A stretch of DNA of 46,283 bases from a virus (lineage: Duplodnaviria; Heunggongvirae; Uroviricota; Caudoviricetes). Made by a program: the position numbers and the translations under genes. Positions within the stretch are counted from its first letter, which is position 1, and each line of letters begins with the position of its first letter. The stretch is from IMG/VR virus record IMGVR_UViG_3300010354_007935, positions 1 to 46,283 of that record. One strand, 5' to 3'. The notes under the pieces are model-generated. The model was given only the letters and a program-made list of their open reading frames with translations, did not search any database and was not told where the DNA came from. Positions 1-46,046 of this stretch are shown one piece after another.

Positions 1-643
1 CAATAATGTGCCCACCGAGGCCATGAGCCGCATCGGCACACTCAATGATTGCACTGAGTTGAGGATACCCAACACCAGTTTGTATACGAGTAGTACATAC
101 ACTCCCAGGACCAATACCAACTTTAACGATATCTGCTCCACGTAAAATTAACTCCTGTGTCATGTCTGCGGTAACAACGTTACCTGCAATAATAGTGCAA
201 TGGGGAAACGTTTCTCTAACTTTTTGAACATAGTCACCAAAGCGTTCTTGGTAACCGTTAGCAACATCAATGCAAACAAAATGTATTTCAGGATATGCAT
301 TTATAGTTTGACGTAATTTTAAAAAATCATTATCACTAGTTCCTGTGCTGACAGCAAAATAATTACCGCCAATATCTTCTACAGTTGTGTCAAAATATTC
401 TATGTTGATATTTTTTACTAAACAGGTAAACATTCTATGCCTGTATAGTGCGTGAGCCATATCAAGTGTACCAACACCGTCCATATTGGATGCCATAATT
501 GGAACGCCAGTCCACTCTGTTTTACTATGTCGAAATTTATAGGTACGATTTAAGTCTACTTCTTTACGACTAGAAAGTGTACTGCGTTTAGGACGAATAA
601 GTACGTCTTTAAAATCTAATTTAATTTCGTCTTCAATTCTCAT
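1..643 (-). CDS. guaC: GMP reductase (runs off the left edge of the window; not in the ORF track)
   Basis: Manual translation from ATG at 643: [31 protein letters not shown]...[14 protein letters not shown]...[46 protein letters not shown]. This matches enterobacterial-type GuaC, including the catalytic Cys loop. ATGA overlap with the upstream PRTase stop. Confidence 0.97.
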
Positions 644-1233
644 TGTTCCCACCATGCTTCATACGGGAATTCAATCCATACGTCGTTTTCAGCTTTGTTT
701 ACTTCCATACCAACAAAGTCCATACCTATTCTACATTTACTAGATAGGTTATCGACAAGGACTGCAAATTTTACATTATTATTCCAAACATGTTCCCAAT
801 CAGGATCATCAGGTAAACAACTTGCTGGCCAGTCATTCATAATCCAATTAAAGGTAGCACCGGTATCGTTAATATCGTCAACCACAAGAATATTTTTGTA
901 ACTGGGCGGCTCGGGCATTTCTAATAGACTCGATGCGGCCTCTAATACTGCACCGATGTCGTTTTCATCGTCAACATGAATTTCTTGTTTAGGATAGCCA
1001 AATGCGTCTTCAGCCATACCGCAGTCACTAACACATTCGCCGCCGTCACGCAGACTAACTTGCAAAGGTTTCATAGGAACATTTAGGTAATGGCTAATCA
1101 TGACAGCAGGCACTAACCCTCCACGGCTAATACCTACAACATAGTCTGGTCTCCAGCCACTATTACCAATATCTCTACAAAGTTTAGCAACTAACTTTTT
1201 TAAGTCTCGATCTTTAAGGATTAGCTTGTTCAT
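640..1233 (-). CDS. Type I phosphoribosyltransferase, Gpt/xanthine-guanine PRTase-like
   Basis: [13 protein letters not shown]-terminal motif and PRPP-binding loop [14 protein letters not shown]; C-terminal WIEFPYE resembles the Gpt WIxFPW motif. Confidence 0.88.
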
Positions 1234-1976
1234 CGTGGTGCAAATTCCTGTTGCATTTTAATATTGTCAAAGAATTCTTTCTTTGTTCCTATATCGTCTT
1301 TAAAAGCACCTTTGAGTACAGTAGTTTGTGTAAGACTACTATGTGCCATAATACCACGATTCTCACAACATCCGTGAGTGGCTTGGATATACACGCCTAA
1401 GTCTTTTGCGCCTGTGGCTTTTTCGATTTCCCTAGCAATGTCATTGCAAAGTTCCTCCTGGAGAGTACCACGTCGGGCGCACCACTGTGCGATGCGGGTG
1501 TACTTGCTGAGACCGATAAGTTTCTGCGCGGCAATAATACCAATATAAGCAACGCCAACAACGGGTTGGTGATGATGGCTACACATACTGCGAAGCTCGC
1601 TGCGAACAACCAGCATACCAGAATAGCGGTCCTCCGAATCATTTGGAAATGCTGTTGCGTCTGGTGCTGGGTCATATCTTCCTGCCATTATTTCGTTAAA
1701 GTACATTTTAGCAAGGCGACGGGCTGTGCCTTTACTATTAGGATCGTTTTCACGATCAATCAGCAACCGATCAAGCACCAGTTCAAATGCTGGTGTAGCT
1801 TCGTCGATAAGTTTTTCTATGTCGCCTTCGTACAAGTAGTCACTGATGTTATCACCTGCCCAAAAGCGTTTGCCTTCGCGTCGCATCTTAAAACGAATGT
1901 GATCTCCTAAGTATGCTTCTGAATATCCACCGTCGCCTGCCATTGCGTCTAGTGCTGTTTCTTTTTTATTGGTCAT
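1230..1976 (-). CDS. folE: GTP cyclohydrolase I (type IA)
   Basis: SMCSHHHQP, GLSKYTRI, LQEE and ATHGCCENRG zinc/catalytic motifs. Start moved to ATG 1976, which follows a GGAGA ribosome-binding site. Confidence 0.96.
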   Translation of the reverse strand: MTNKKETALDAMAGDGGYSEAYLGDHIRFKMRREGKRFWAGDNISDYLYEGDIEKLIDEATPAFELVLDRLLIDRENDPNSKGTARRLAKMYFNEIMAGRYDPAPDATAFPNDSEDRYSGMLVVRSELRSMCSHHHQPVVGVAYIGIIAAQKLIGLSKYTRIAQWCARRGTLQEELCNDIAREIEKATGAKDLGVYIQATHGCCENRGIMAHSSLTQTTVLKGAFKDDIGTKKEFFDNIKMQQEFAPR

Positions 1977-1995
1977 TGTTTCTCCTATCCGTAAC

Positions 1996-2025
1996 ATTAT
2001 ACAGATGTATTTAGGTCCTGGTCAA
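1996..2025 (-). promoter_or_regulatory. Sigma70-like promoter TTGACC-N18-TATAAT with a TAAATA box in the spacer
   Basis: Read directly on the minus strand upstream of the folE RBS; TAAATA at 2008-2013. Confidence 0.7.
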
Positions 2026-4243: not shown

Positions 4244-4664
4244 AATCGTCCTTCACAAGATAATACGTAGTTTTAAATTTTTCAAATGCAATTTTAAGAC
4301 CTGGATATACTTCACACATTTTTTGTACTCGACTCCAATCAGGAAAATGATGTTTCCATTCGGAGTTCATAATGCTCTCCAAATTAGATATATCAAATGT
4401 GCTTATAGTTGCAGTTCCACTAGTAGTAGAGATAGTAGCATATCCACCAGCTCCGCCAATAGTTGAAATACCACTTGTACCAACAGCACCAATTGAATAA
4501 ACAGGAGAACTGGTTAGACCGGTAATTGTTATTGTGTCTGACGCAGATAGTCCACTACTCAAATTGATAGAACTAAAATCTATAGTATCAGCAGATGATC
4601 CTATAGTAATAGTATCAATTTGCGATTGTGTTAAGTAACCCGGTTGCTGAGAAAAAGTGCTCAT
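4218..4664 (-). CDS. Hypothetical protein with S/T/G-rich N-terminus
   Basis: 148 aa; low-complexity N-terminal part, C-terminal FPDWSRVQKMCEVYPGLKIAFEKF. Confidence 0.65.
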   Translation of the reverse strand: MSTFSQQPGYLTQSQIDTITIGSSADTIDFSSINLSSGLSASDTITITGLTSSPVYSIGAVGTSGISTIGGAGGYATISTTSGTATISTFDISNLESIMNSEWKHHFPDWSRVQKMCEVYPGLKIAFEKFKTTYYLVKDDYDNPNTKK

Positions 4665-5691
4665 GTAAAGACTCCGTTTGTTGTTTAAGCTGTGGAAGTC
4701 TCGATTCGTAATAGTCCATATGACTCATTATTGCTCTGCATAAATCAGGTCTATAAACATTATAAGCATCCCAGCTTTCTGTCCATTTGCTTTGATATTT
4801 AAAAATATTAAAATACATCTCTGTGTAACTGAGTCTATCAGGAACCATAGGAATAGCGTCTACTACTGCGCCTTCGTAACAACTAATGCCTAAAGTTTCT
4901 TGTAGGTTGGCAGAAAAAACTAACTTGGCCTCGCCTAACAACGTGTGATATTCATGTTTTGTTAATTTTTGATCCTGACACACTACAAATTCATATTGTG
5001 GTAAGTGTGTAGCTAAGTCTCGAAAGATCTCAACTTGCTTCTCTGGAGCGATCCTATGAGGGAAAAGGATCAAGTCACGTTTCTTCATGCCTTTATATGG
5101 TGCCAATGTATCTAGCATATATTCCATTGGCCAGCCTGTGCGTACAATTTTACCATCTTTTATATATGAAAGTTTTGCTGTTTCAAAATCTATACCTAAT
5201 AGATTATGACAAAACATTTCAATATGAAAGTCTGTGGCAAAATAGTTATGGTCGATAGCATGAAAGAAACTTTTTTCAGCATAACGTACCCACGGAGCGT
5301 TGCCAATAAGGCGTCCTAAAAAGTCTTGAGGATCATAGCTACCAGCATGCCATAGTGCGTGAATAGTTACAGGTATCTGTAACAGTTCACTCATATATTT
5401 TAAGTTTATGATACCAGGATGCCAAGCATCAGTAAACAAAAAATGATCGCCAGGCTTAACTGCTCCGGATGTAAATAAGCGACTAAATTCCTCAACTTGA
5501 CGAGACTTGTATATATTAGTCCCGCCAAAATTGAGAAAGGCACCAGGAGTAGTGGCACTAGGAATATCTTCAGGACCAGAGATAACTTGAATCTCATGTC
5601 CTGCCCTTTTAAAAATTTTGGGTACATGTTCTTTCCATTGTGCAGTATATCGAGTTTCAACTGCTTCTAAGTCTACAACATAAACGGTCAT
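4615..5691 (-). CDS. GT-B fold glycosyltransferase (GT4-like, retaining)
   Basis: ILFPHRIAPEKQ and VFSANLQETLGISCYEG (E-X7-E motif) in the C-terminal Rossmann domain; 358 aa. Confidence 0.8.
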   Translation of the reverse strand: MTVYVVDLEAVETRYTAQWKEHVPKIFKRAGHEIQVISGPEDIPSATTPGAFLNFGGTNIYKSRQVEEFSRLFTSGAVKPGDHFLFTDAWHPGIINLKYMSELLQIPVTIHALWHAGSYDPQDFLGRLIGNAPWVRYAEKSFFHAIDHNYFATDFHIEMFCHNLLGIDFETAKLSYIKDGKIVRTGWPMEYMLDTLAPYKGMKKRDLILFPHRIAPEKQVEIFRDLATHLPQYEFVVCQDQKLTKHEYHTLLGEAKLVFSANLQETLGISCYEGAVVDAIPMVPDRLSYTEMYFNIFKYQSKWTESWDAYNVYRPDLCRAIMSHMDYYESRLPQLKQQTESLHEHFFSATGLLNTIAN

Positions 5692-5959: not shown

Positions 5960-6355
5960 TTAATACTTAATAAATGAACCATTTTCTCCGTCTTCGGAGA
6001 CCTCAATCCAAACTTCACGGTCTGGATACCTTGCATGAATCTGAGCGTATAAATCATCACTCATCATCTCGCAACTTTTATAATCTAACGACAATACACC
6101 TTCGTTGCTAGAATACAGTTTTTCGAGCCATCGCTTGAATTGTATAAATTCCACATCTCGGTCATTGTGGGTAACACTAAGATAAACCCTAAAATGAAAG
6201 ATATGGCGATGAGGATGGCCCAAGAACGAAACGTCATATTCGTCTCCAGTAGCTAAGTTGGGGTCAGTTAATGCCGCTGGGTATTTGTGAATACCTTCCT
6301 TACGAAATGTGACCCAAATCATTTTGTTAGGACGGATGTCTTGCTTAATAATCAT
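5960..6355 (-). CDS. queD: QueD-like / 6-pyruvoyl-tetrahydropterin synthase-like T-fold protein
   Basis: EGIHKY, GHPHRHIFHFRV, SCEM and VSEDGENG align by eye to the QueD His triad, T/SxEN and VxE motifs. Start set at ATG 6355 (ATGA overlap). folE and TGT-like genes are in the same cluster. Confidence 0.68.
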   Translation of the reverse strand: MIIKQDIRPNKMIWVTFRKEGIHKYPAALTDPNLATGDEYDVSFLGHPHRHIFHFRVYLSVTHNDRDVEFIQFKRWLEKLYSSNEGVLSLDYKSCEMMSDDLYAQIHARYPDREVWIEVSEDGENGSFIKY

Positions 6356-6885
6356 GTTGGAGTATCCTGTGTATATTGATCCCAATAAGTGTATTTGTCT
6401 TTACTCATCAGGCTTGGAAGATGATGTGTCCAAACACCGGGATTGGTAGCACCCCAAGTGCGGTCATCGATTTTAAGTGTTGCATTGTAATTGTAAAGTT
6501 TAATGTAAGGCAACTTTACACTAATCATAGGAATAAATCTATCATGCTCGGTCCATCCATCTTCATGGATTTCTTCGGCATATTTTACATCAAAGTCTAA
6601 CGTAACCCAATAGCCGGCTTTAAGACAACCCATAATGCGGTCGTCCCAAGTTTTCCATTCTTCATAAGTGCTAGGATTAAAACTTTGGCTAGTACCAAAA
6701 TAAATTTGTTTGATTCGTTTAGACTCGTCTAGCATGGACTGTGTTTCATCTGCCTTACGCAGAATTTCTTCTAGAGGAGGAGTACCTACTACAAATAATG
6801 TGTACATTCCATAGGCAATCGTGTGTTCTACTTCGTAGCCTGTGAAGTATACAATACCTTGCCGTTCTTCTGTATTCAATCCCAT
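6352..6885 (-). CDS. Hypothetical protein adjacent to the QueD-like gene
   Basis: Start set at ATG 6885 (MGLNTEERQG), overlapping the upstream stop; 177 aa alpha/beta pattern. Confidence 0.75.
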   Translation of the reverse strand: MGLNTEERQGIVYFTGYEVEHTIAYGMYTLFVVGTPPLEEILRKADETQSMLDESKRIKQIYFGTSQSFNPSTYEEWKTWDDRIMGCLKAGYWVTLDFDVKYAEEIHEDGWTEHDRFIPMISVKLPYIKLYNYNATLKIDDRTWGATNPGVWTHHLPSLMSKDKYTYWDQYTQDTPT

Positions 6886-7772
6886 TTGATATAACCTCTG
6901 CTGTAGCCTTCTGGACGATCTGCACCATCCGCAAATGCTTGTTGCCAATTTGTATCACGATTGTAGCTTCTTGTCCAGAAAGAATCAACCTCTAGATAAC
7001 CGTTTTCAATCCAATGTTTGGCAAAGTGCATACAATTAATAAATTCGGGATGTCTTGGACTTGGAAAAACCATAGTGCAGGCTTTCCAAAGTAGTTTTGA
7101 AAAATCTGTAGTTACAGTTTTTTGAGCACCAAAAATTACTAACGCATTTTCTCTCAAAATATCTTTATCAAAAACATCTGTTTTATTACTTAAATCGATA
7201 ACAACATCGTAGTTTGCCTCAGTTTTTTCTTGTAATATATCTCCCCAGAGGTCTTTATTATTAGATCCTACAACATCTACTTGATAAAAATAACCGTTGA
7301 GTCGCATAGTATGATACGCAACCCATGCTAAAAAACCACTACCTAAGATTAACATACGAGAATGTACACCTTGACGTTCTTCAATAAGTCGTTGCGTCTG
7401 GTTTATAAGGTTAATGCCGCATGCTACTGGTTCAAGTATGTATTTAGGAGTTGCTTCTGGTACTACAACAAATTCGTTTTTACGGACATTATAGTAATCT
7501 GCATAAGCAGGTTCTCCTCTGGTAGCAACAAAATCTCCAATTTTAACATCTTTTGTATTGCTTCCGACCTGGACTACTTGACCGAGGCCCTCGTGACCTT
7601 GCATATAGATAGGCAATGGACCAAAGGTTCCTTGCATCATATCGATATCGCTACGGCATACTCCAGTCATAATGGATTTAACAACAATTTCGTCGGGTGT
7701 ATGTTCAGGTTTTTCCCAACCACCTTCACTAAAGGTGCCTGTACCAGTAGTCATTAAAATTCTTGTACGCAT
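6876..7772 (-). CDS. MDR-superfamily (Zn alcohol dehydrogenase-like) oxidoreductase
   Basis: TGVCRSD and GHEGLGQVVQVG catalytic Zn motifs; ILGSGFLA NAD-binding loop; no structural-Zn Cys loop. Confidence 0.88.
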   Translation of the reverse strand: MRTRILMTTGTGTFSEGGWEKPEHTPDEIVVKSIMTGVCRSDIDMMQGTFGPLPIYMQGHEGLGQVVQVGSNTKDVKIGDFVATRGEPAYADYYNVRKNEFVVVPEATPKYILEPVACGINLINQTQRLIEERQGVHSRMLILGSGFLAWVAYHTMRLNGYFYQVDVVGSNNKDLWGDILQEKTEANYDVVIDLSNKTDVFDKDILRENALVIFGAQKTVTTDFSKLLWKACTMVFPSPRHPEFINCMHFAKHWIENGYLEVDSFWTRSYNRDTNWQQAFADGADRPEGYSRGYIKWD

Positions 7773-8641
7773 AATTTTCCTAATTGTTTATGTATCCATA
7801 AATCTTGCTCGTATTGGTTAATCCAAAATTCGTTGTTATTTAGGTTTTTAACAGCAGTCTCGATCATTTTTTTATAAGCCGATTCGGGGCACAAACCTAA
7901 TGTATGTTTTATTGCGCTACTATCTGAACTAAAGCTAATATAAACATCATCGGATTTATCGTCTTTCCAATTAGCACTTAGAATCCATTTTGTAGTTCCG
8001 CTGTAGTATTCTAATTCTGCAAAGTCGTCAACATTGTATGTTCCGTTAGGATTTATATTTCCATAATCGGTGCTACTAATGTCTTTTAGTTTATGTCGCT
8101 GTATTGCTGAAGCAAATATTCGCGTTCCTGTTTTGTAATTTGTTAAGCAGGTATAGTAACTTAGCATATGAGGCATTAGATCTCTACTAACTCCTCCGAA
8201 TGCTAATTCTCGTGTAGTGAACCAACTACCGGGGTGGGGAATACGATTTTTATTATTCCATATAACATGTACACGTTTACTACTGTCTGCTAGTCTTTGA
8301 AATTCTGCTATTTCGGGTCTATATTGATTATTCTTAACCATCATAAATCGTGTATTAGGATAATCTTCTACAAGACATTGCCAGCATTTAGCATCGACTA
8401 CGCCTGGTTTTTCAACTAGTACAATTTTACATTTATTAGCAATAGTACGAGCAATTAACTCGTGTGTATAGTTAGGAGTACAAATCACTGCAATGTCGTA
8501 ATTGTCAGTAATTTCGTCTGCTGATCGAAACGTTGCATTTTTTTCAACACTAGGATCGACAGTATCGATATCAAATCCTAAACTTTTAAAAACACTTTGG
8601 TATAGATTGCCTATACCCATGCCTATGATAAGACTACGCAT
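7754..8641 (-). CDS. Gfo/Idh/MocA family NAD-dependent oxidoreductase
   Basis: LIIGMGIG Rossmann loop, AVICTPNYTH, VLVEKP, GGVSRDLMPHML. Confidence 0.88.
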   Translation of the reverse strand: MRSLIIGMGIGNLYQSVFKSLGFDIDTVDPSVEKNATFRSADEITDNYDIAVICTPNYTHELIARTIANKCKIVLVEKPGVVDAKCWQCLVEDYPNTRFMMVKNNQYRPEIAEFQRLADSSKRVHVIWNNKNRIPHPGSWFTTRELAFGGVSRDLMPHMLSYYTCLTNYKTGTRIFASAIQRHKLKDISSTDYGNINPNGTYNVDDFAELEYYSGTTKWILSANWKDDKSDDVYISFSSDSSAIKHTLGLCPESAYKKMIETAVKNLNNNEFWINQYEQDLWIHKQLGKLCVQEF

Positions 8642-8882
8642 TTTTGTTTTCTTTTGATTGTTCGTATTGTTTAAATAATCTTGTTACCGGTTCCATGCGT
8701 TCAGCAAAGATGTCTGGACTGGCTTCGGCAGCACGTTGCATATCCCATTCACTAGGATAGTGTCTAAGACACCACCTAGCATTGTCTTTAACGGACTTAG
8801 GTATGCGAGGAGTAGTAAGAAGCTCTTCAAGAAACTTCTTAGTTTGTACTACTGCTCGATACCGTTCGTCAGGTAGCGTCAT
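8634..8882 (-). CDS. Small conserved protein (resembles BPSL0761 family)
   Basis: MTLPDERYRAV...PRIPKSVKDNARWCLRHYP; start set at ATG 8882. Confidence 0.65.
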   Translation of the reverse strand: MTLPDERYRAVVQTKKFLEELLTTPRIPKSVKDNARWCLRHYPSEWDMQRAAEASPDIFAERMEPVTRLFKQYEQSKENKNA

Positions 8883-10419
8883 GACCCAATTCCAATTCAT
8901 CTAGTTTATCAATTTCGTCTTCGGTAAACTCACCGTCGTCATTGGATTGTACAGTCTCTGTCTCTACTTCGTCAAAGAATTCGAAATACTTAGTACTCGA
9001 GTTGACAGTTTTCTTACCAATTGCACCTCGTGTACCAGGAATAGCCATCCAAAAACGACTAAAGTCCTCGATGATTTCGTCACTTTCTGCTTTACTGCTG
9101 GTAGCAAAAATAGCTTCAACTACATCTTTAAAGTAAACTCTATTGATGTTTTCTTGTACTAGCATATTTGGACACAACCCAGCATCATACTGACGGTTAG
9201 CTTCTTGTACGCTATTCAAATGTTGCCAAACATTATGGCCCATCATAATAGCATAACTAAAACTATCCCATGAAGTTTTACCTTCTTTGCCAATCTTATT
9301 TAGATCACCGGGGTTATAAATGCAAATGTCCTTGACTGGAACACCATCCATAACAGGACTAGTAGTAAAAGACTTAAAGTGACCATCTTGTACTACTGCA
9401 TCTTGGAAGAGTCTTGTGTCTTGGGCATACTTTTTGTCATCAATAGACGGCAACATGCGGTAGAGCCATTTTTGCCTATCTGCGATTTCTGTCTGGACGT
9501 AGATTTGTCCGTTTGCAGTTGCGAGGAACGGTGAGGCGCAGTCAAAAGAGATGGTAAAGTTTTCATTATGATATTTCCTTACAGCACGTTGAATGTCTGT
9601 GAGCAATAATGCCCACTCCAGTTTACTAGTTCCTAGAAAGTGCATCCAATCTTGTTTGCCTTTTTCTAGGAGACCATCATGACGAAGTGCAACAATACGT
9701 TTTAATGTAAGATGCACATCGCACATGTTCTGACCACCCATAGCCCAACCATTAAAATGGTTGCTATACTGCTTAGGGTCGCAATACTGTTTCATACGTT
9801 GATACCAGTCTTCGGCATCAGTATGATTTTCACCTTGTAAAACATTTAAGAACTTGCAATTACCGTTGCGATTTTTAATAAAGTAATCATTATTAATATA
9901 AGTTCCTTGCACCGCTTCTGCGTAAGTGCTAATACCAGTAGCTTTTTGACCAGCAGGACTACGAGCAACCCACGCAGGAATATCAAGAATCATGCCGTAG
10001 TCCATTAGACTATCCATCCAGGTTAATACCTGAGCACGTTTTTTAGCAGCCTTAGGACAATTAGGATCTTTCCAATCACCTTCCCATTTGCCTTTACCGA
10101 TTTGAAATCCACCAGAGTCGCCTAACACCCAACTTGTTCCGCGATTACGTTTACGGAACATGTCTTCACTATCGTCTTGTTTGTTAAGATCTAAATTAGC
10201 ATGTCCTGCACTATATAAACAATGGTCATAGTAGAATAGACCTTTATCAGGATCTAAAAAATTTAGACTCTCTACTCCGTTAGTAAAAGTTTTAGGCACA
10301 CGGTTAGGATCTACGTAATTTCCATAACGCTGTTTTCCGATAAATGTGCTATAAAAACCGGAAACAGCCGGAAGAAAATATGCGTAGTCGTTTTGTGCGG
10401 CTGTTAAATTACGATTCAT
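8869..10419 (-). CDS. TGT-superfamily guanine transglycosylase (DpdA-like)
   Basis: VLGDSGGFQ, MILDIP, VLQG, GWAMGG, HFLG and SFDCASP occur in the same order as TGT base-exchange motifs; no CxCxxC zinc site. Confidence 0.8.
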   Translation of the reverse strand: MNRNLTAAQNDYAYFLPAVSGFYSTFIGKQRYGNYVDPNRVPKTFTNGVESLNFLDPDKGLFYYDHCLYSAGHANLDLNKQDDSEDMFRKRNRGTSWVLGDSGGFQIGKGKWEGDWKDPNCPKAAKKRAQVLTWMDSLMDYGMILDIPAWVARSPAGQKATGISTYAEAVQGTYINNDYFIKNRNGNCKFLNVLQGENHTDAEDWYQRMKQYCDPKQYSNHFNGWAMGGQNMCDVHLTLKRIVALRHDGLLEKGKQDWMHFLGTSKLEWALLLTDIQRAVRKYHNENFTISFDCASPFLATANGQIYVQTEIADRQKWLYRMLPSIDDKKYAQDTRLFQDAVVQDGHFKSFTTSPVMDGVPVKDICIYNPGDLNKIGKEGKTSWDSFSYAIMMGHNVWQHLNSVQEANRQYDAGLCPNMLVQENINRVYFKDVVEAIFATSSKAESDEIIEDFSRFWMAIPGTRGAIGKKTVNSSTKYFEFFDEVETETVQSNDDGEFTEDEIDKLDELELGHDAT

Positions 10420-11368
10420 TATTAGATTTTTTCTTTAAATAAAAGCTACCTACAAATATAGCTAACATTGTAGCTAAAGTCACTATTGTTGGTACAATTA
10501 GAGGAAGATTTTTACTCATAAAGTAAAAATAATTTACTGCGTTCATAGCCAAAACAGTCCATAGCATTGTTTTCTTGTTGACCCATCCTAGTAAAATATT
10601 ACCAAAAGGTGCAAAGAACAATACTACAGGTGCTGCCGCCAGCCACATATGATAAACTTCTGGTTGTACAGCATCGAGTACTAGTCCTCTATAGGCAATT
10701 CCAAAAACAGTGACAACAGCCATTAAAACAATACTAATATCAGTACTGATTTTTTCCTTCATACCGTAGTAACATGTAAGTGCAATATAAATTAACATAT
10801 CGGATCCTGTACCAAACATAGCACTAGCACATCCTCCAATAAACGACCAAACACTAAAACTAAGTAGTCGTTCTTTACTATCAATATCTACCCGATCTTC
10901 GTTACCGTTGCCGCGTGTGAACAAGTATGCTAAAATAAACGATAGTGCCAAGCTAACAAATAACATTTGAGTTACCTTGAAAGCAACTAAATGATATATG
11001 CTAGACATAAAAATAAATCCAGCAAAATTGACTAGTGCATAAAATGGAACCCATTTAAAAGTTGATAGGCTATGACCTTTCCTGGTTAAAATCCAAATAG
11101 CTGCTGATACCATGCCAATACTTTGAATAGCTAGGCTAAAGTCTCTAGCAGCCATTGGGGTAATTTTAAAATATAAACTTAGTATTGGAAAAGCAACTGC
11201 TCCACCGCCTTCGGGAGTAAATCCTGCAATAGCAGATCCGAAAATCATCATTATTGCGTAGAGCCAGTGTGTATCATATAATGCAAAGCCCGGCCCAGTT
11301 AAAATTAAGTATAACCAAGTGATCAATACTGCGCTTGCCCATATAGGCCAAATTAGTTGTTTAATCAT
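10409..11368 (-). CDS. TauE/SafE (TSUP) family membrane transporter
   Basis: About 9-10 hydrophobic segments; AGFTPEGGGAVAFP and SAMFGTGSD repeat-domain motifs. Confidence 0.8.
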   Translation of the reverse strand: MIKQLIWPIWASAVLITWLYLILTGPGFALYDTHWLYAIMMIFGSAIAGFTPEGGGAVAFPILSLYFKITPMAARDFSLAIQSIGMVSAAIWILTRKGHSLSTFKWVPFYALVNFAGFIFMSSIYHLVAFKVTQMLFVSLALSFILAYLFTRGNGNEDRVDIDSKERLLSFSVWSFIGGCASAMFGTGSDMLIYIALTCYYGMKEKISTDISIVLMAVVTVFGIAYRGLVLDAVQPEVYHMWLAAAPVVLFFAPFGNILLGWVNKKTMLWTVLAMNAVNYFYFMSKNLPLIVPTIVTLATMLAIFVGSFYLKKKSNNES

Positions 11369-11570
11369 TCTTGAGACCCCATTTAATTTTTAACCATAGC
11401 CTTTCATGAATGTAGTAATCGATACTTAAAAGAATATGTAATGCGGTTGCAAATCCTGTTGCATTGCCGATATCTCCCGTGAACAAATATGTCCACAGGA
11501 TCGTAAATAACCATGCGGTTATTCTATATGTTACCATACGGGTAACAGTTCTCTTTTTAGTTTCTATCAT
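11361..11570 (-). CDS. DUF2061-like small membrane protein
   Basis: ETKKRTVTRMVTYRITA...YYIHERLWLKIKWG. Confidence 0.78.
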   Translation of the reverse strand: MIETKKRTVTRMVTYRITAWLFTILWTYLFTGDIGNATGFATALHILLSIDYYIHERLWLKIKWGLKND

Positions 11571-12298
11571 TTGCTCTGTGCAGGTAAAATGTAATCGTAC
11601 TCTGCAAGTCCGCTATCGACAGTAATCATCATAGCACCTGCATCGGCAATCTTAATGGTCTTATCACCCGCTAAGTTAAGAATACTCATAACTTGAACAA
11701 CAGGCCATGCCCATGCTTGCTTTAGTTTACCAGTAACGCCTGCTTGGAAAACAAACTCGCCTGCGTGTGTGCTTGCATCGCCAAAGCTGAATACCAAATT
11801 ACCGTTGTCTGTTTTAACTTGAAAAACGGGTTCTTCGCTATGTGCGTTTGCTTGGAATTTTAGTTTTTGAATACTAGTAACTGTGGGTTCAAATTCAATG
11901 TTCCAGGTAGCACCTTTAAACTTAACTGATTTAAGTTTTTCATTAATAATTTCTGTACTCATAAAACGATAATCGTTTTCAAAGTCGCCTGCTTCATTTT
12001 CAAAGTGAAGTCCTGTTGGAATATCTTCACCGTTGCGGTTAGCAATACTTACACTAATCTTAGCTTTTTCTTTGTACTCTGGACATTTCAAATGAATGTC
12101 TAGTTTATTTAGGTTTGGCATACCAAAGACACCTTCAAATTCTTGAACTGGTGTTTTAGTTTTAGCACTAATAATAACACTACGGTCCTCTGCCATAGAC
12201 TCGATTAGTGTTTCTTTATCGTCAGCTGTGATTTTTACCAACGGAATAAATCCTAGTGCATGAGTGTGTGCTACTAGGTCTTGTAAAATGTCTTTCAT
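11567..12298 (-). CDS. Putative sliding clamp (gp45/PCNA-like)
   Basis: 243 aa, two-lobed alpha/beta pattern, ends in YDYILPA; near polB, with a clamp loader elsewhere in the window. Start follows GGAGA. Confidence 0.6.
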   Translation of the reverse strand: MKDILQDLVAHTHALGFIPLVKITADDKETLIESMAEDRSVIISAKTKTPVQEFEGVFGMPNLNKLDIHLKCPEYKEKAKISVSIANRNGEDIPTGLHFENEAGDFENDYRFMSTEIINEKLKSVKFKGATWNIEFEPTVTSIQKLKFQANAHSEEPVFQVKTDNGNLVFSFGDASTHAGEFVFQAGVTGKLKQAWAWPVVQVMSILNLAGDKTIKIADAGAMMITVDSGLAEYDYILPAQSK

Positions 12299-12318
12299 AT
12301 GAATCTCCATGTTTAATG

Positions 12319-12347
12319 ATTATATTTAGGTTTTTGACAAAAGTCAA
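12319..12347 (-). promoter_or_regulatory. Sigma70-like promoter TTGACT-N17-TATAAT with overlapping TAAATA
   Basis: Near-consensus boxes; TAAATA at 12323-12328; TTGAC-AAAA-GTCAA inverted repeat at 12334-12347. Confidence 0.82.
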
Positions 12348-13108
12348 CGTATTTTATTATTGTATTCAACCGATTCTTTTAAAATAGTAAGCGGTTTATT
12401 TAGGCCATAACTGTATTTTATAAATGCAGTTGTATCTTTAGGGAAACAATGTCCACCCCATCCTCGTTCACCGTCTGGTCCAGGAACCATAGTATGGTCT
12501 GTACCAATGCGAGTATCATGGCCTAAAATTTGTCGTACGACATTAAAATCTGCGCCATTTGTTTCGCACATGTCGTAAATTTGATTAAAGAAGCTAGTTT
12601 TAACTGCTAAGAAACTGTTAGCAGTATATTTGATAATACTAGCTTCTAAATTTGTACAACCAAAGTAAAGTCTGCATTTAGGCAATGCTGGTGTAAAGAG
12701 GTCTTGCCAGAAACATTCAGGATCTTCCCCACCGATAATCATAAACGTTTGATTGGCAAAATCTTGCTCTGCTGTTCTTGCTCTTAGAAATTCTGGACTG
12801 TAAACAATGCTATGGTCGGGATATTTGCTATCTAATTCAGAAACAACATCTGGACTAACTGTACTTTTAATTAATACAGGTATATGAATAGGGCATTGAT
12901 CTAAAATGTTAGTGACTTGACTAGCATCGCATTGCCCATCAGCAGTACTTGGTGTTCCGACACAAATAATAATACCGTCTGCATCTATGTGATTTGTAAT
13001 GGTATTAGTATTAAATTTAGGATCGACAATTTCTATAGAATAGTGTTTTTTAAGATTGTTGGCAACTGCCTTACCAACAAATCCGTAACCGGCGATGATA
13101 ATTTTCAT
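12344..13108 (-). CDS. UDP-glucose/GDP-mannose 6-dehydrogenase family (no C-terminal domain)
   Basis: IAGYGFVG, ICVGTP, LIKSTV, YSPEFL, IKYTANSFLA, GWGGHCFPKD (catalytic Cys). Confidence 0.9.
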   Translation of the reverse strand: MKIIIAGYGFVGKAVANNLKKHYSIEIVDPKFNTNTITNHIDADGIIICVGTPSTADGQCDASQVTNILDQCPIHIPVLIKSTVSPDVVSELDSKYPDHSIVYSPEFLRARTAEQDFANQTFMIIGGEDPECFWQDLFTPALPKCRLYFGCTNLEASIIKYTANSFLAVKTSFFNQIYDMCETNGADFNVVRQILGHDTRIGTDHTMVPGPDGERGWGGHCFPKDTTAFIKYSYGLNKPLTILKESVEYNNKIR

Positions 13109-15774
13109 AGTTCAAATAAACTGTTAAATGTGTTCTTTTCTTCTGTGCTACTAATATTCCAGTTTAGGACACCAATAAGGTTTTCTAATTTCTTATCGAT
13201 AATAGTAGCTTCCATTTCGTCATGAGCAAATGGCAAGTCTTTGAACCATTGCGGTAAACGTAACTCGTCCACAGGATAAGCAACACTAGTAAACTCTAAT
13301 GGATTAGGTTTAAGTTTACAAACAATAACCTTAGCACCGTCAGTAATATTCATACTATACTTGTCACTGAACATGCGCTTTAATGTATTCCAGTTAATAC
13401 TAGCACGAACATGACCAGGCATGTTAGCTTTGCCTTGTTTCTTTTCCTTGCTTTCGTAATCGGTAATATTGTTGGCACGTTTAGGCGAACCTTTCTCCCA
13501 ACCTGGTCTTGCTTTAAATGCAATGCGGAACTCGCTAATGTAATCTAACACTTCTTGTTCTGTAGCACCAGTTAGTACCATTTCTAAAACTTTACTTAAA
13601 AAGTCTTGGATAAATTCTGGAGTATCGCTACGCTTAAGATCTAAGCCCATAGCTTTAATCTTACCGGGTTTGCCGTCTATGTCTGTACGCTTACCTTCTT
13701 TATCGTAATAAAGAACTGCATAACGCTTTTTAGTAATAAACAACGATTTACTGCCAACAATTTCACGCCCAGCTTTAATAACTTCTCCACGTGTCTTTGG
13801 ACAATGGAAAGCGTCAAGCATAAATTGAGGGAACGTTTCATTCACGTCGCTACCAATTTGATCATACAGTTGAATAACAGTTTCCTTATTCCACGGAATA
13901 AGACCTTTATCAATATCTTTTTGCAAAGTTTTATATGCACTAAAATAACAACTGTCAGTGTCGCCGTAGATAATTGCTTTACCTACATGGTTATACTCGC
14001 CGCAAACGATTTCATTAACTTTGGAAGCCATGTGCTTTGCAATCTGACGCCCAGTAAGAGTTGTAGATTGGCCGATACGTTTATCAAAAAAGCGACAGCC
14101 AGGATTAAGAATAGCCCCATAGAGGGAGTTGAGGTTAATTTTTTTGACAAGCTGTCGTTTGTCCCAGTATTCTTCTTCGATTTTATTTCCAGCATTTATA
14201 GCCTCCTTTAGTTTGGCCTGCATCTCTTTACGTTCTGCATACCAACGTTTTAGTAGCCCTGGAATAATACCTTCCTTTTCATAAGTGAAGATTGTGCCAT
14301 TTGCTGAAAGCATCCAGGGTTGATTGCTTTCAAAAATTAATCTATATGCTTCGGCGGCACTGAGCGCATCACTAGATCCATCTTCCCAGTCGATAGTAAT
14401 GTTGGTACCGATTTCTTCGTTCATTACAGCTTCGTACTCAAGACTGCCAAATTTGCCTTCCCAAGCAGCCGCAAAACTTTTACCTTTAGCAATTTGTTCT
14501 TGAATGTACTCTTCGGTCATTGTTTGGCGTAACTGACCAACAATAGTTTCTGGGCCCATGTTTAGCGCACGAATGGCACTAGGATAAAGACTGTTAATAT
14601 CTAATGAACCGACCCAATCGTGAATACCTTCTTTAGGATAAGCGACATACGCACCGGCAGCGCCTTCGTTATCCTCACGTTCACTCATTTTAGTTCTATT
14701 AGGAACAACAAAACCTCGCCGATGACTTTCGTTAATAATAGCCTGCTCTGTTACAGCCACGGCACCCATTGTTGTCTGTAGCAGTACAGTATTTTCATGT
14801 GCCAGTGTATTGGCAAGATCCAAGAACTTTAATTTTTTATCAAGTCTGTCCAATAGCGCACAGTCTTGACGGTTGTATTCGATGAACGTTTTGAAGTCAT
14901 TGTTGTAGAGTTGATCCAATGTACCTTCGTATTGCGTTTTGCGTTCACCAAGTTCGTATTCCGCGATAGCATCCAGTCGATAGGAGTGGCGTTCTTCATA
15001 TGTGTACTTTCTGTAAAGTTCTAAACTATCTAAATGAACACGACCAATAAAGTCGTATGTTGTAGCAGTACGACCAAATTTTTCGTATTCGCGCTTTTTA
15101 GGAAACTGATTAAACAAACAAAAACGTCTTGTATCTTCTTTGCTCAATACTTTTGTAACACGATTAACAGTATAGGGAATATCAAAGCCTTCGCTGTTCC
15201 AACCTGTTAAAATATCTGCATCTTCTATCAGTGTTAGAAATGTGTTTAACAAATCGCCTTCGTTGTCAAACAACATTGTATTAGGAAATTCTTCAACTTG
15301 TTTTTTAGCTTCTTCCATAGACATCTTTTTTGGCGGAATAGCCAAGCAGACCATAGTGTCTAGCCATTGTAGGTGAACAGCGATGGCAGTGATTGGCATA
15401 AAAGCATCATCCGGTGACGCATAACCACGTTCTGGATCGAAGTCCACCTCAATATCAAAAAATGCTACATTTAATTTGGGAGCATCTTGGTTGAGATAAT
15501 TTTCACTTAGACAAACGAAGATTGGATTAATGTCAGTTTCGTAAAGTGTCTTGCTACTGTTAATAGCCATTTCTTTACGAAGTTCTTTTGTGTTCTTACA
15601 AACAATACGGCTAACAGGATCTCCGTAAATCGAAGTATGTTTGCCCTTAGCATCTTTGTAATATAAGGTGTGTTTGACAGGAATGTCTCGAAATTCCCTC
15701 TCACCTTTTTTATTGCGTTCGACAATTTTGATGATATCATTATCGCGGTCGAACCACGCATCTACGTAACTCAT
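13105..15774 (-). CDS. Family B DNA polymerase (T4 gp43-like)
   Basis: Exo I FFDIEVD, Exo II WNSEGFD, Exo III YNRQD; polymerase motifs DINSLYPS, KINLNSLYG, YGDTDS. Start set at ATG 15774 after AGGAGA. Confidence 0.97.
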   Translation of the reverse strand: MSYVDAWFDRDNDIIKIVERNKKGEREFRDIPVKHTLYYKDAKGKHTSIYGDPVSRIVCKNTKELRKEMAINSSKTLYETDINPIFVCLSENYLNQDAPKLNVAFFDIEVDFDPERGYASPDDAFMPITAIAVHLQWLDTMVCLAIPPKKMSMEEAKKQVEEFPNTMLFDNEGDLLNTFLTLIEDADILTGWNSEGFDIPYTVNRVTKVLSKEDTRRFCLFNQFPKKREYEKFGRTATTYDFIGRVHLDSLELYRKYTYEERHSYRLDAIAEYELGERKTQYEGTLDQLYNNDFKTFIEYNRQDCALLDRLDKKLKFLDLANTLAHENTVLLQTTMGAVAVTEQAIINESHRRGFVVPNRTKMSEREDNEGAAGAYVAYPKEGIHDWVGSLDINSLYPSAIRALNMGPETIVGQLRQTMTEEYIQEQIAKGKSFAAAWEGKFGSLEYEAVMNEEIGTNITIDWEDGSSDALSAAEAYRLIFESNQPWMLSANGTIFTYEKEGIIPGLLKRWYAERKEMQAKLKEAINAGNKIEEEYWDKRQLVKKINLNSLYGAILNPGCRFFDKRIGQSTTLTGRQIAKHMASKVNEIVCGEYNHVGKAIIYGDTDSCYFSAYKTLQKDIDKGLIPWNKETVIQLYDQIGSDVNETFPQFMLDAFHCPKTRGEVIKAGREIVGSKSLFITKKRYAVLYYDKEGKRTDIDGKPGKIKAMGLDLKRSDTPEFIQDFLSKVLEMVLTGATEQEVLDYISEFRIAFKARPGWEKGSPKRANNITDYESKEKKQGKANMPGHVRASINWNTLKRMFSDKYSMNITDGAKVIVCKLKPNPLEFTSVAYPVDELRLPQWFKDLPFAHDEMEATIIDKKLENLIGVLNWNISSTEEKNTFNSLFEL

Positions 15775-15785
15775 ATTTTCTCCTA

Positions 15786-15835
15786 TGCAATTTACGGCTT
15801 GCAAATACCAATTTGTTCATTTATGGCTGAACAAA
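15786..15835 (-). promoter_or_regulatory. Twin hairpins in the polB 5' leader (candidate translational operator)
   Basis: mRNA: UUUGUUCA-GCCAUAAA-UGAACAAA and UGCAA-GCCGUAAA-UUGCA, followed by U and then AGGAGA; the two 8-nt loops differ at one position. Confidence 0.65.
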
Positions 15836-45018: not shown

Positions 45019-45477
45019 ATGAATATACACGCAGATAAAGAGTTTTGGACTACATTAAAATGGCCTGCTGCACCCAATGAGGACGATTTTCGTGTATTTG
45101 CAAAATATTGTACAGGGCGTGTATTATTGCTTGGTAGTACTAAGCTTCTGCTTCCTCTGGCAACAGAAGCTTGGGATTTAGATCCTAAATATGACGATCC
45201 TAAAATTAAAAACAAGGATTGGTTTTCCCTAAACGAGCATTGGGATACAATAATAATTGATGGCGGCTTGGCATTTGGTAAAGAATTTACAGAGCGTGTT
45301 CTTAATGTAGTTATTCCTAATTGTAATTGCTTTGTAGCTCGTGCTTTTCTAAACCCTAACTGGCCTACAAAATATGCGGTGTACTTTCCTCGTGCCGAAG
45401 AACTAACACCGCAGCCTGAAGAACACCCTATTAACGAAGTTTACACATTTTTCATATGGAACAACAAACAATCTTAG
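45019..45477 (+). CDS. Hypothetical protein, possibly Rossmann/methyltransferase-like fold
   Basis: RVLLLGST...WDLDP...WDTIIIDGG pattern; canonical motif I Gly residues incomplete. Confidence 0.6.
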   Translation: MNIHADKEFWTTLKWPAAPNEDDFRVFAKYCTGRVLLLGSTKLLLPLATEAWDLDPKYDDPKIKNKDWFSLNEHWDTIIIDGGLAFGKEFTERVLNVVIPNCNCFVARAFLNPNWPTKYAVYFPRAEELTPQPEEHPINEVYTFFIWNNKQS

Positions 45478-46046
45478 CCATGTACTCAGGCGGTTTAGAC
45501 AGCCTAGGCATGGTCTACAAACTGCTAACTGAAGAACAGTACAAAAACTACAAGTTACACATTCACCACGTTCACCAGCGTAATGTTGAGAACCGTGATC
45601 GTGCGGAAGCTATCACAGTAGAAATGGCTCTAAAAGAACTAGAGAGATTAGGTTACAGTTTTGTCTACAGTGAAAGCGAAATAGGCACACAACCCTATAA
45701 CGGACAGTTTATGTATGATACGGACAGCATCAATTTCTTTGCGGGTTATGTTTGTTCAGTAAATCCTAATATTGTAAAAGTTGCCATGGGTATGCAGAGA
45801 AACGATGCTAGTCAACGATTAGAAGAACGCCGTATTCGTGCTAATAAAATCCTACAGGCATTTACACCTGCTGAAAAGATATTTCCTGTAATTGACATGA
45901 CCAAACGTGAGATCTACGATATGCTACCAGAAACGCTACGTAATATGTTTTGGAGTTGTAGAACTCCTGTCTACACTGAAAAAAATATCGCACCCTGTGG
46001 AAGGTGCGATACTTGTTTAAAACTTAAAGAACAAGGTATTCGTTAA
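45456..46046 (+). CDS. QueC-like PP-loop ATP pyrophosphatase
   Basis: LAMYSGGLDS, FPVIDMTKREI, FWSCR...PCGRCDTC zinc motif. Confidence 0.78.
   Translation: MEQQTILAMYSGGLDSLGMVYKLLTEEQYKNYKLHIHHVHQRNVENRDRAEAITVEMALKELERLGYSFVYSESEIGTQPYNGQFMYDTDSINFFAGYVCSVNPNIVKVAMGMQRNDASQRLEERRIRANKILQAFTPAEKIFPVIDMTKREIYDMLPETLRNMFWSCRTPVYTEKNIAPCGRCDTCLKLKEQGIR

Follow-up and report, generated by a model that had tools for sequence, protein, structure and literature searches.

The 46,283-nt stretch analysed in this study (hereafter the window) is part of a viral contig of 110 kb that is estimated to be ~25% complete. A single minus-strand reading frame, running from an ATG at position 10419 to a stop codon ending at 8869, encodes a protein that we refer to as the long DpdA. 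The gene is flanked by genes for a family B DNA polymerase (PolB) and a sliding clamp on one side, and by genes related to 7-deazaguanine synthesis on the other (Table 1).

Table 1. Features of the locus in window coordinates; residue numbers refer to the long DpdA.
Feature	Position	Strand	Remarks
Purine phosphoribosyltransferase (PRTase)	640..1233	minus	XPT/HGPRT-like; in 36/44 loci, also in the PA5oct cluster
FolE	1230..1997	minus	GTP cyclohydrolase I; starts 7-deazaguanine synthesis
Glycosyltransferase candidate	4615..5691	minus	GT-B-like; co-conserved with long DpdA and DpdL
DpdL	5960..6385	minus	Predicted to decarboxylate CDG; carries the LxxxHRHxF signature; 55% identity to DpdL of PA5oct
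Conserved ORF	6352..6948	minus	In 44/44 loci; real start probably further in
Long DpdA-type guanine transglycosylase	8869..10419	minus	516 aa; ortholog of PA5oct QCG76197.1
Acidic tail	8872..8973	minus	Residues 483-516; 44% D+E; low model confidence; lacking in some homologs
Candidate clamp-binding PIP-like motif	8974..8988	minus	YFEFF, residues 478-482
TGT zinc subdomain without Cys ligands	9184..9372	minus	Residues 350-412; His-Asn helix retained (H395, N396)
D293 codon	9541..9543	minus	Nucleophile (E. coli Tgt D264, FDC); invariant, 114/114
D146 codon	9982..9984	minus	Base-recognition Asp; LDIP instead of the bacterial DEC context
D101 codon	10117..10119	minus	General acid/base (E. coli Tgt D89)
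TauE and DUF2061 genes	10409..11570	minus	Between clamp and DpdA; accessory
PCNA-fold sliding clamp	11567..12310	minus	Upstream of the DpdA gene in 80/80 loci, often overlapping its start
Sigma70-like promoter	12319..12347	minus	Before the clamp gene; 11/12 matches
PolB	13105..15804	minus	C-terminus FNSLF at about 13108-13131

Sequence searches against Pfam, PHROGs, NCBIfam and the PDB returned nothing for the long DpdA, and nothing for its profile. The family is nonetheless large, as 7,960 of 8,000 scored candidates (clusters at 90% identity) proved to be relatives, and at 50% identity 989 clusters were counted. The best matches among cultured phages were found in the jumbo phages PA5oct, Paride and MIJ3 (35.6%, E 1e-77), headed by QCG76197.1 of the Pseudomonas phage PA5oct (EST35_0316, gp168), and a further relative is present in Callisto. 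QCG76197.1 and QCG76199.1 have been filed as DpdA3 and DpdL, respectively, alongside FolE, QueD and QueE of this phage (Cui et al. 2023 Data S1; 10.1101/2023.04.13.536721; PMC10516641). As an ortholog of a listed protein, the long DpdA is therefore a member of the catalogued group, and by the member list, which derives from PSI-BLAST, it qualifies as DpdA3. Many close homologs (L022-L024, L029, L031 and similar loci) span ~560 aa, suggesting a subtype with an insertion of 40-55 aa. A scan of GTDB yielded a single match, a contig of a Pacearchaeota MAG (L111, NZDU01000039.1). This contig is likely to be phage DNA misbinned into the MAG, because it carries the whole phage gene order (PolB-clamp-DpdA-QueD-DpdL-glycosyltransferase-FolE), most of the genes being 56-72% identical.

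The AlphaFold2 model of the long DpdA, built from 114 sequences, is of high confidence (pLDDT 91.6, pTM 0.91), being weak at residues 466-474 and 486-496 and at the last residues. Foldseek and VIA-align both identified a TGT-type TIM barrel in the model. It superposes on Thermotoga maritima Tgt with Z 17.8 and rmsd 4.5 over 306 aligned residues, and the top five of 48,161 structural representatives (arcTGT, QTRT2, Tgt, the bacterial DpdA 7UI4 and Cap10) all belong to the TGT family (Z 17.0-13.8, the next fold scoring 11.4). The retention of the base-exchange residues, noted in the initial annotation by eye, was borne out by the alignment to E. coli Tgt, in which D101, F105, D146, Q195/G196, G228/G229 and D293 correspond to D89, F93, D143, Q187/G188, G213/G214 and D264, respectively. 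Thus, the three active-site Asp, the aromatic residue, the Gln-Gly and the Gly of the TGT/DpdA superfamily are all present. D101 is kept in 113 of 114 family members, and D146, H260, G263 and D293 in all of them. In the DpdA of S. Montevideo, the equivalent Asp95 and Asp256 are needed for DNA exchange (PMC10164549). The bacterial preQ1 pocket, DEC/GGLAVGE, is swapped for LDIP/GGQNM in the long DpdA, and no NCBIfam match brings the protein to the TIGR00430 cut-off of bacterial tRNA Tgt.

A sequence scan detected no CxCxxC zinc site in the long DpdA, as had been noticed initially, because no pair of Cys is spaced by 1-4 residues; the zinc His is retained. The subdomain itself persists: in the alignment, S354-P355 falls opposite the zinc Cys loop, and H395-N396 opposite H333-N334, the His-Asn of the Tgt zinc site. 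Since, in addition, the structural alignments to TGTs extend to residue 421-439, most of the C-terminal extension of about 150 aa proposed in the initial annotation is ordinary TGT architecture. Only ~60-95 residues are truly extra, ~50 of them modelled with low confidence, although the acidic end described there is real.

We then counted neighbours in 80 related IMG/VR loci; the downstream counts come from the 44 in which 5 kb of sequence follows. The order PolB-clamp-DpdA-DpdL-glycosyltransferase-FolE-QueE is a conserved cluster. Sequence searches with the clamp found nothing; its fold alone revealed PCNA (E about 1e-10, TM 0.6-0.7), confirming the clamp neighbour of the initial annotation. 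The promoter before the clamp gene has at least 10 of 12 matches in 75 of the 80 loci, a score that none of 240 control windows attained. It was the one site upheld across loci in a promoter scan that, taken as a whole, ran at chance level (26 vs 23.6). Because the clamp, DUF2061, TauE and DpdA genes overlap end to start behind this conserved sigma70-like promoter, clamp and DpdA are likely to be co-transcribed, as previously suggested. Some neighbours were rejected as core parts of the cluster, namely GMP reductase, TauE, DUF2061 and two oxidoreductases, which occur in 0, 0, 10, 27 and 26 of the 80 loci, respectively. The GMP reductase gene (GuaC, E 1.8e-97; window 2-655) adjoins the PRTase gene and is cut by the contig end, while the oxidoreductases are a Gfo/Idh/MocA and zinc dehydrogenase pair behind DpdA (window 6876-8641), present in about a third of loci. 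A UDP-glucose dehydrogenase gene (12344-13108) was seen in 31 of 80 loci.

Downstream of DpdA, the genes for DpdL, the glycosyltransferase and one conserved ORF, for which an atlas search returned nothing, are present in all 44 loci, and FolE in 40. QueE is encoded in all 22 loci that extend past FolE by more than 2.1 kb. A search of the 110-kb contig did not find QueE, which is uninformative because the contig stops 1.2 kb past FolE. QueD was located at 65114-65620 of the contig. The long DpdA is thus accompanied by genes for 7-deazaguanine synthesis, FolE and DpdL in the window and QueD elsewhere on the contig. The window also carries, on the plus strand (45456-46046), a gene for a short PP-loop protein that resembles QueC (22.5 bits, the cut-off being 150) and has a group of Cys at its C-terminus; this gene is distant from the DpdA cluster and occurs in none of the 80 related loci. 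The glycosyltransferase had 23 matches in cultured phages, all of which encode a long DpdA-type enzyme and most of which also encode DpdL. It is absent from phiST and Ahp1, and the text of the Cui preprint contains no discussion of it (10.1101/2023.04.13.536721). A clade member from Vibrio phage 2.275.O (L090:6905-13931) lies among genes for QueF, YhhQ, queuosine synthesis, a glutamine amidotransferase-like protein and FolE; for this reason, members of the long DpdA clade probably insert different bases in different phages.

The initial annotation assigned replisome contact to the acidic tail. The idea of contact holds up, whereas the element has to be replaced: acidity alone was ruled out as the conserved signal, since some homologs lack the acidic stretch and in four loci the protein stops right after an aromatic motif that precedes it. 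This motif, F/Y-x-x-L/F-F, is the conserved tail pattern of the long DpdA. All 121 close homologs contain it (3.3 expected from the mean of shuffles, max 9), as do 68 of 74 loci (mean 1.8, max 6) and 22 of 97 distant representatives (mean 4.3, max 11), counts that are not independent because the close homologs have a common ancestry. PolB of the same phage ends in FNSLF-EL, and F-x-x-L/F-F occurs at the PolB ends of 77 of 77 loci. The tails of DpdA and PolB agree within a phage, being NDLFGW/TDLFDW in Vibrio phage 2.275.O and FNSLF/FDSLF in PA5oct. The motif has the traits of a PIP/SCBM-type clamp partner, in that it is aromatic, lies in a flexible region and is common to the C-terminus of the cognate polymerase. 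The complex model of the DpdA tail with the clamp scored 0.64, against 0.09 for the best control; the mark applied is reached by 58 of 80 solved pairs and by 2 of 110 mismatched pairs. Runs share at least 67% of contacts with a partner pLDDT of at least 48, the fold of the peptide being uncertain. The modelled contacts join Y478, F481 and F482 to clamp residues 43, 46, 127-134 and 241-246, which we take to be the interdomain-loop PIP pocket of PCNA. As the score may derive from solved PCNA-PIP complexes, the model supports rather than proves binding. Altogether, the long DpdA probably binds the clamp via residues 478-482. A literature search on DpdA and the clamp, of incomplete coverage, returned no description of such docking.

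Some other DpdA proteins end in comparable motifs: DpdA2 of ACP17, X1, BUCT-ZZ01 and Moby in a T4-like LxxLF, and DpdA1 of 9g and BcepGomr in the beta-clamp-like QDLF and QGLF (tails taken from L102:692-1966, L105:1468-2781, L106:1801-3051, L107:801-2012, L098:3007-3960 and L108:404-1324). Judging from these tail sequences, clamp tethering may be general among phage DpdA.

Could the enzyme modify DNA without being tethered, the motif being structural or meant for another partner and the position beside the clamp gene reflecting expression timing? Clamp adjacency is common, because DpdA1 of 9g also adjoins a polymerase and a clamp, and the strict motif is missing from three quarters of the distant members and from five close homologs. 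Nevertheless, the motif sits in a low-confidence tail and matches the end of the phage's own PolB, and among the 177 ORFs of the contig it is confined to PolB, the long DpdA and one short antisense ORF. Furthermore, 14 of 230 homologs have lost the inner motif and end in an LF motif, which requires at least six changes on a quick FastTree phylogeny; this reappearance at the C-terminus speaks against an untethered enzyme. We consider this alternative unlikely, albeit the strongest of those weighed here.

The proposal that the protein is a DpdA-type DNA transglycosylase finds support in its fold, residues and gene cluster, and in the restriction resistance of PA5oct. DNA of that phage resists EcoRI, BmrI, ApaLI and XbaI as well as BsaI, and PA5oct is attacked by a nuclease that targets phages with modified G (PMC12191111). 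Blocking is listed for five of the ten enzymes, which hints at a partial, motif-dependent modification. DNA is thus very probably the substrate of the long DpdA. FolE, QueD and QueE of the phage would convert GTP to 7-carboxy-7-deazaguanine (CDG), which DpdL, by prediction, decarboxylates to 7-deazaguanine (DG). The enzyme, made from the clamp transcript, would dock by residues 478-482 in the PIP pocket of the clamp, as the PolB C-terminus would, and in consequence the exchange is proposed to take place on new DNA behind the fork. There, D293 would attack C1' of deoxyguanosine, guanine would leave with D101 acting as acid/base, and the free deaza base would then be attached to the DNA in a double displacement; PRTase may salvage the released guanine. 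Replacement of guanine by the deaza base is the proposed reason why the DNA resists restriction enzymes, and would most likely guard the phage genome against DNA-cutting defences of the host. That the inserted base is DG or a derivative of CDG is an even call, because the activity of DpdL is a prediction, DG lacks an obvious handle for a glycosyltransferase, and the QueC-like gene in the window is a weak match.

Alternatively, incorporation could be pre-replicative, the deaza base entering DNA as a dNTP, with PRTase making the nucleotide and DpdA acting on nucleotides or topping up the modification. The frequency of PRTase in the clusters, including that of PA5oct, would suit this route, as would the lack of activity of DpdA3 in the E. 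coli trials of Cui et al. 2023. Nevertheless, guanine salvage explains PRTase equally well, the blocking of five of the ten enzymes listed for PA5oct DNA fits partial, motif-dependent exchange, and a clamp motif suits an enzyme acting on DNA; we hold the dNTP route to be improbable. Still less probable is a tRNA transglycosylase altering wobble bases of host or phage tRNA. The best structural matches are tRNA enzymes, Gln195 is TGT-like and a grouping with Tgt has an AU p of 0.43, but tRNA enzymes make up most of the solved structures, the zinc Cys, DEC and the GGLAVGE preQ1 loop are lacking, neither TIGR00430 nor the Pfam TGT model matches, and the gene is linked to replication genes on a contig with one tRNA call. 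The least credible option is a TGT fold adapted to act on a protein, like Cap10 of type IV CBASS, which matches with Z 13.8 and is likewise zinc-free with a catalytic pair of Asp and His (10.1101/2025.04.06.647259). Against it, the His is common to all phage DpdA references, the neighbours seen include nothing CBASS-like, the cluster yields the free base, and the DNA of PA5oct is modified.

We therefore favour, with a probability of roughly 0.6, a phage DNA guanine transglycosylase that is made with the clamp, docks on it and exchanges the base on newly made DNA. The fold, residues, orthology, gene order and motif conservation are observations of this analysis, whereas the TGT/DpdA chemistry and the resistance of PA5oct rest on published work.

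The placement of the long DpdA among known subfamilies was less clear-cut. The long clade is monophyletic (support of 99 in a quick full-length tree and 87/90 in a core tree), in trees that comprise neither DpdA4, bDpdA nor arcTGT and omit the RHph_I1_18 protein, which has no recognisable motif. That protein (QIG70629.1, L101:6580-7848), a DpdA3 according to Cui et al., is annotated as DUF3310-containing and scores 0.1 bit with the family HMM. The same HMM gave 31.3 bits for ACP17 and 23.3 for nt-1, both named DpdA2, versus 12.8 for the DpdA3 of phiST. Similarly, hhalign matched the family to two DpdA2-type groups at 99.3% and 97.1%, to short DpdA3 at 88.6% (E 2.6e-6) and to DpdA1 at 3%, and Foldseek found nt-1 at E 1.8e-10 vs phiST at 5.4e-3. 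The group around BCSR5 and Motura is a biased comparison because it partly consists of proteins picked as query matches; nt-1 and ACP17, as named DpdA2s, still outscore phiST, whereas BCSR5 alone does not. In the core tree, the long clade is joined neither with phiST CGPG_00065 (AU p 0.215 for joining) nor with nt-1 DpdA2, and a join with the BCSR5 group received 71/54. By profile, then, DpdA2 appears nearer to the long clade than do the short founders of DpdA3, and the trees are compatible with either placement. The DpdA3 label is doubtful for this clade, and a separate subfamily is plausible. Of the distinct DpdA subfamily put forward initially, the single clade was recovered by phylogeny with Tgt and DpdA; its distinctness stays a plausible reading, in that the PA5oct member is already a DpdA3, the profiles are nearest to DpdA2, and the AU test rejects no deep placement, including the groupings with Tgt (p 0.43) and DpdA3.

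DNA base exchange by phage DpdA was already known and this group had been catalogued; what is new is that the clade is probably misplaced in DpdA3, that its zinc subdomain has lost the Cys ligands, that its tail bears a candidate motif for docking on the clamp, and that it is linked with a glycosyltransferase. It is attractive to speculate further, although we doubt that all of it is correct, that a separate DpdA subfamily, highly abundant, devoid of zinc and wrongly assigned to DpdA3, travels on the clamp and modifies DNA during its synthesis, and that the co-conserved glycosyltransferase then adds a sugar to give glycosylated 7-deazaguanine, C-terminal clamp motifs being general, and so far unreported, in phage DpdA1 and DpdA2 as well. 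If this is the case, PA5oct/Paride-like and aquatic jumbo phages contain an undescribed glycosylated 7-deazaguanine. Quite apart from this, a family of such size that has no Pfam, PHROG or NCBIfam model implies that many jumbo phage genomes probably carry an unannotated DNA modification. Tethering would provide a mechanism by which a post-replicative exchange could cover a sufficient number of guanines ahead of packaging or attack by host nucleases. No activity was obtained for DpdA3 and DpdL in E. coli (Cui et al. 2023; 10.1101/2023.04.13.536721; PMC10516641), and the absence of the cognate clamp from that host is a possible reason for the failed trials.

Among known systems, PA5oct is the closest: QCG76197.1 is 35.6% identical over residues 3-412, shares the PolB-clamp-DpdA order and the tail motif, and is followed by genes for the glycosyltransferase gp167, DpdL and PRTase, differing in Ser at Q195 and Ala at G228. 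The founding DpdA3 proteins (phiST CGPG_00065, Campylobacter phages CP220/CPt10, immuto_2-6A) share the catalytic Asp trio and HxLG, and in phiST DpdA3 co-occurs with DpdL, the profile match being weak. They differ in being about 260-290 aa long, in having DNS/DNG for DSGG, in lacking an equivalent of the zinc subdomain and such a tail, and in having no glycosyltransferase partner among cultured phages; full replacement of G is reported for them. DpdA2 (nt-1, ACP17, BCSR5) and the proteins of Motura, GR7B, PhiXhv and NCTB resemble the long DpdA in length (400-570 aa), in DSGG(F/L)Q and as its top profile matches; ACP17, BCSR5, X1 and BUCT-ZZ01 have the same glycosyltransferase and DpdL, and four DpdA2-type proteins end in L-x-x-(L/F)-F. 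Nevertheless, identity to DpdA2 is low (the best tblastn match is no better than E 4e-6), the clades are separate in trees, and the BCSR5/Motura group retains the zinc Cys and has His in place of Gln. Bacterial Tgt, arcTGT and bacterial DpdA (PDB 7UI4) share the fold (Z 14.6-17.8, ~300 residues, rmsd 4.5-4.8) and the catalytic residues; compared with them, the long DpdA is only 12-15% identical, lacks the zinc Cys, the preQ1 loop and a PUA domain match, and has no DpdB-K neighbours among the genes seen. As for the tail, T4 gp43 and ligase bind gp45 by a common motif, LDFLF (PMC6212786). The long DpdA differs from T4, RB69 and PCNA partners in that F/Y-x-x-L/F-F lies on a base-modifying enzyme and its binding is a modelled one; it resembles the motifs of T4 gp43/ligase and RB69 and the PIP boxes of PCNA (PMC6212786) in that a short aromatic motif in a flexible region is common to the polymerase C-terminus and a second DNA enzyme.
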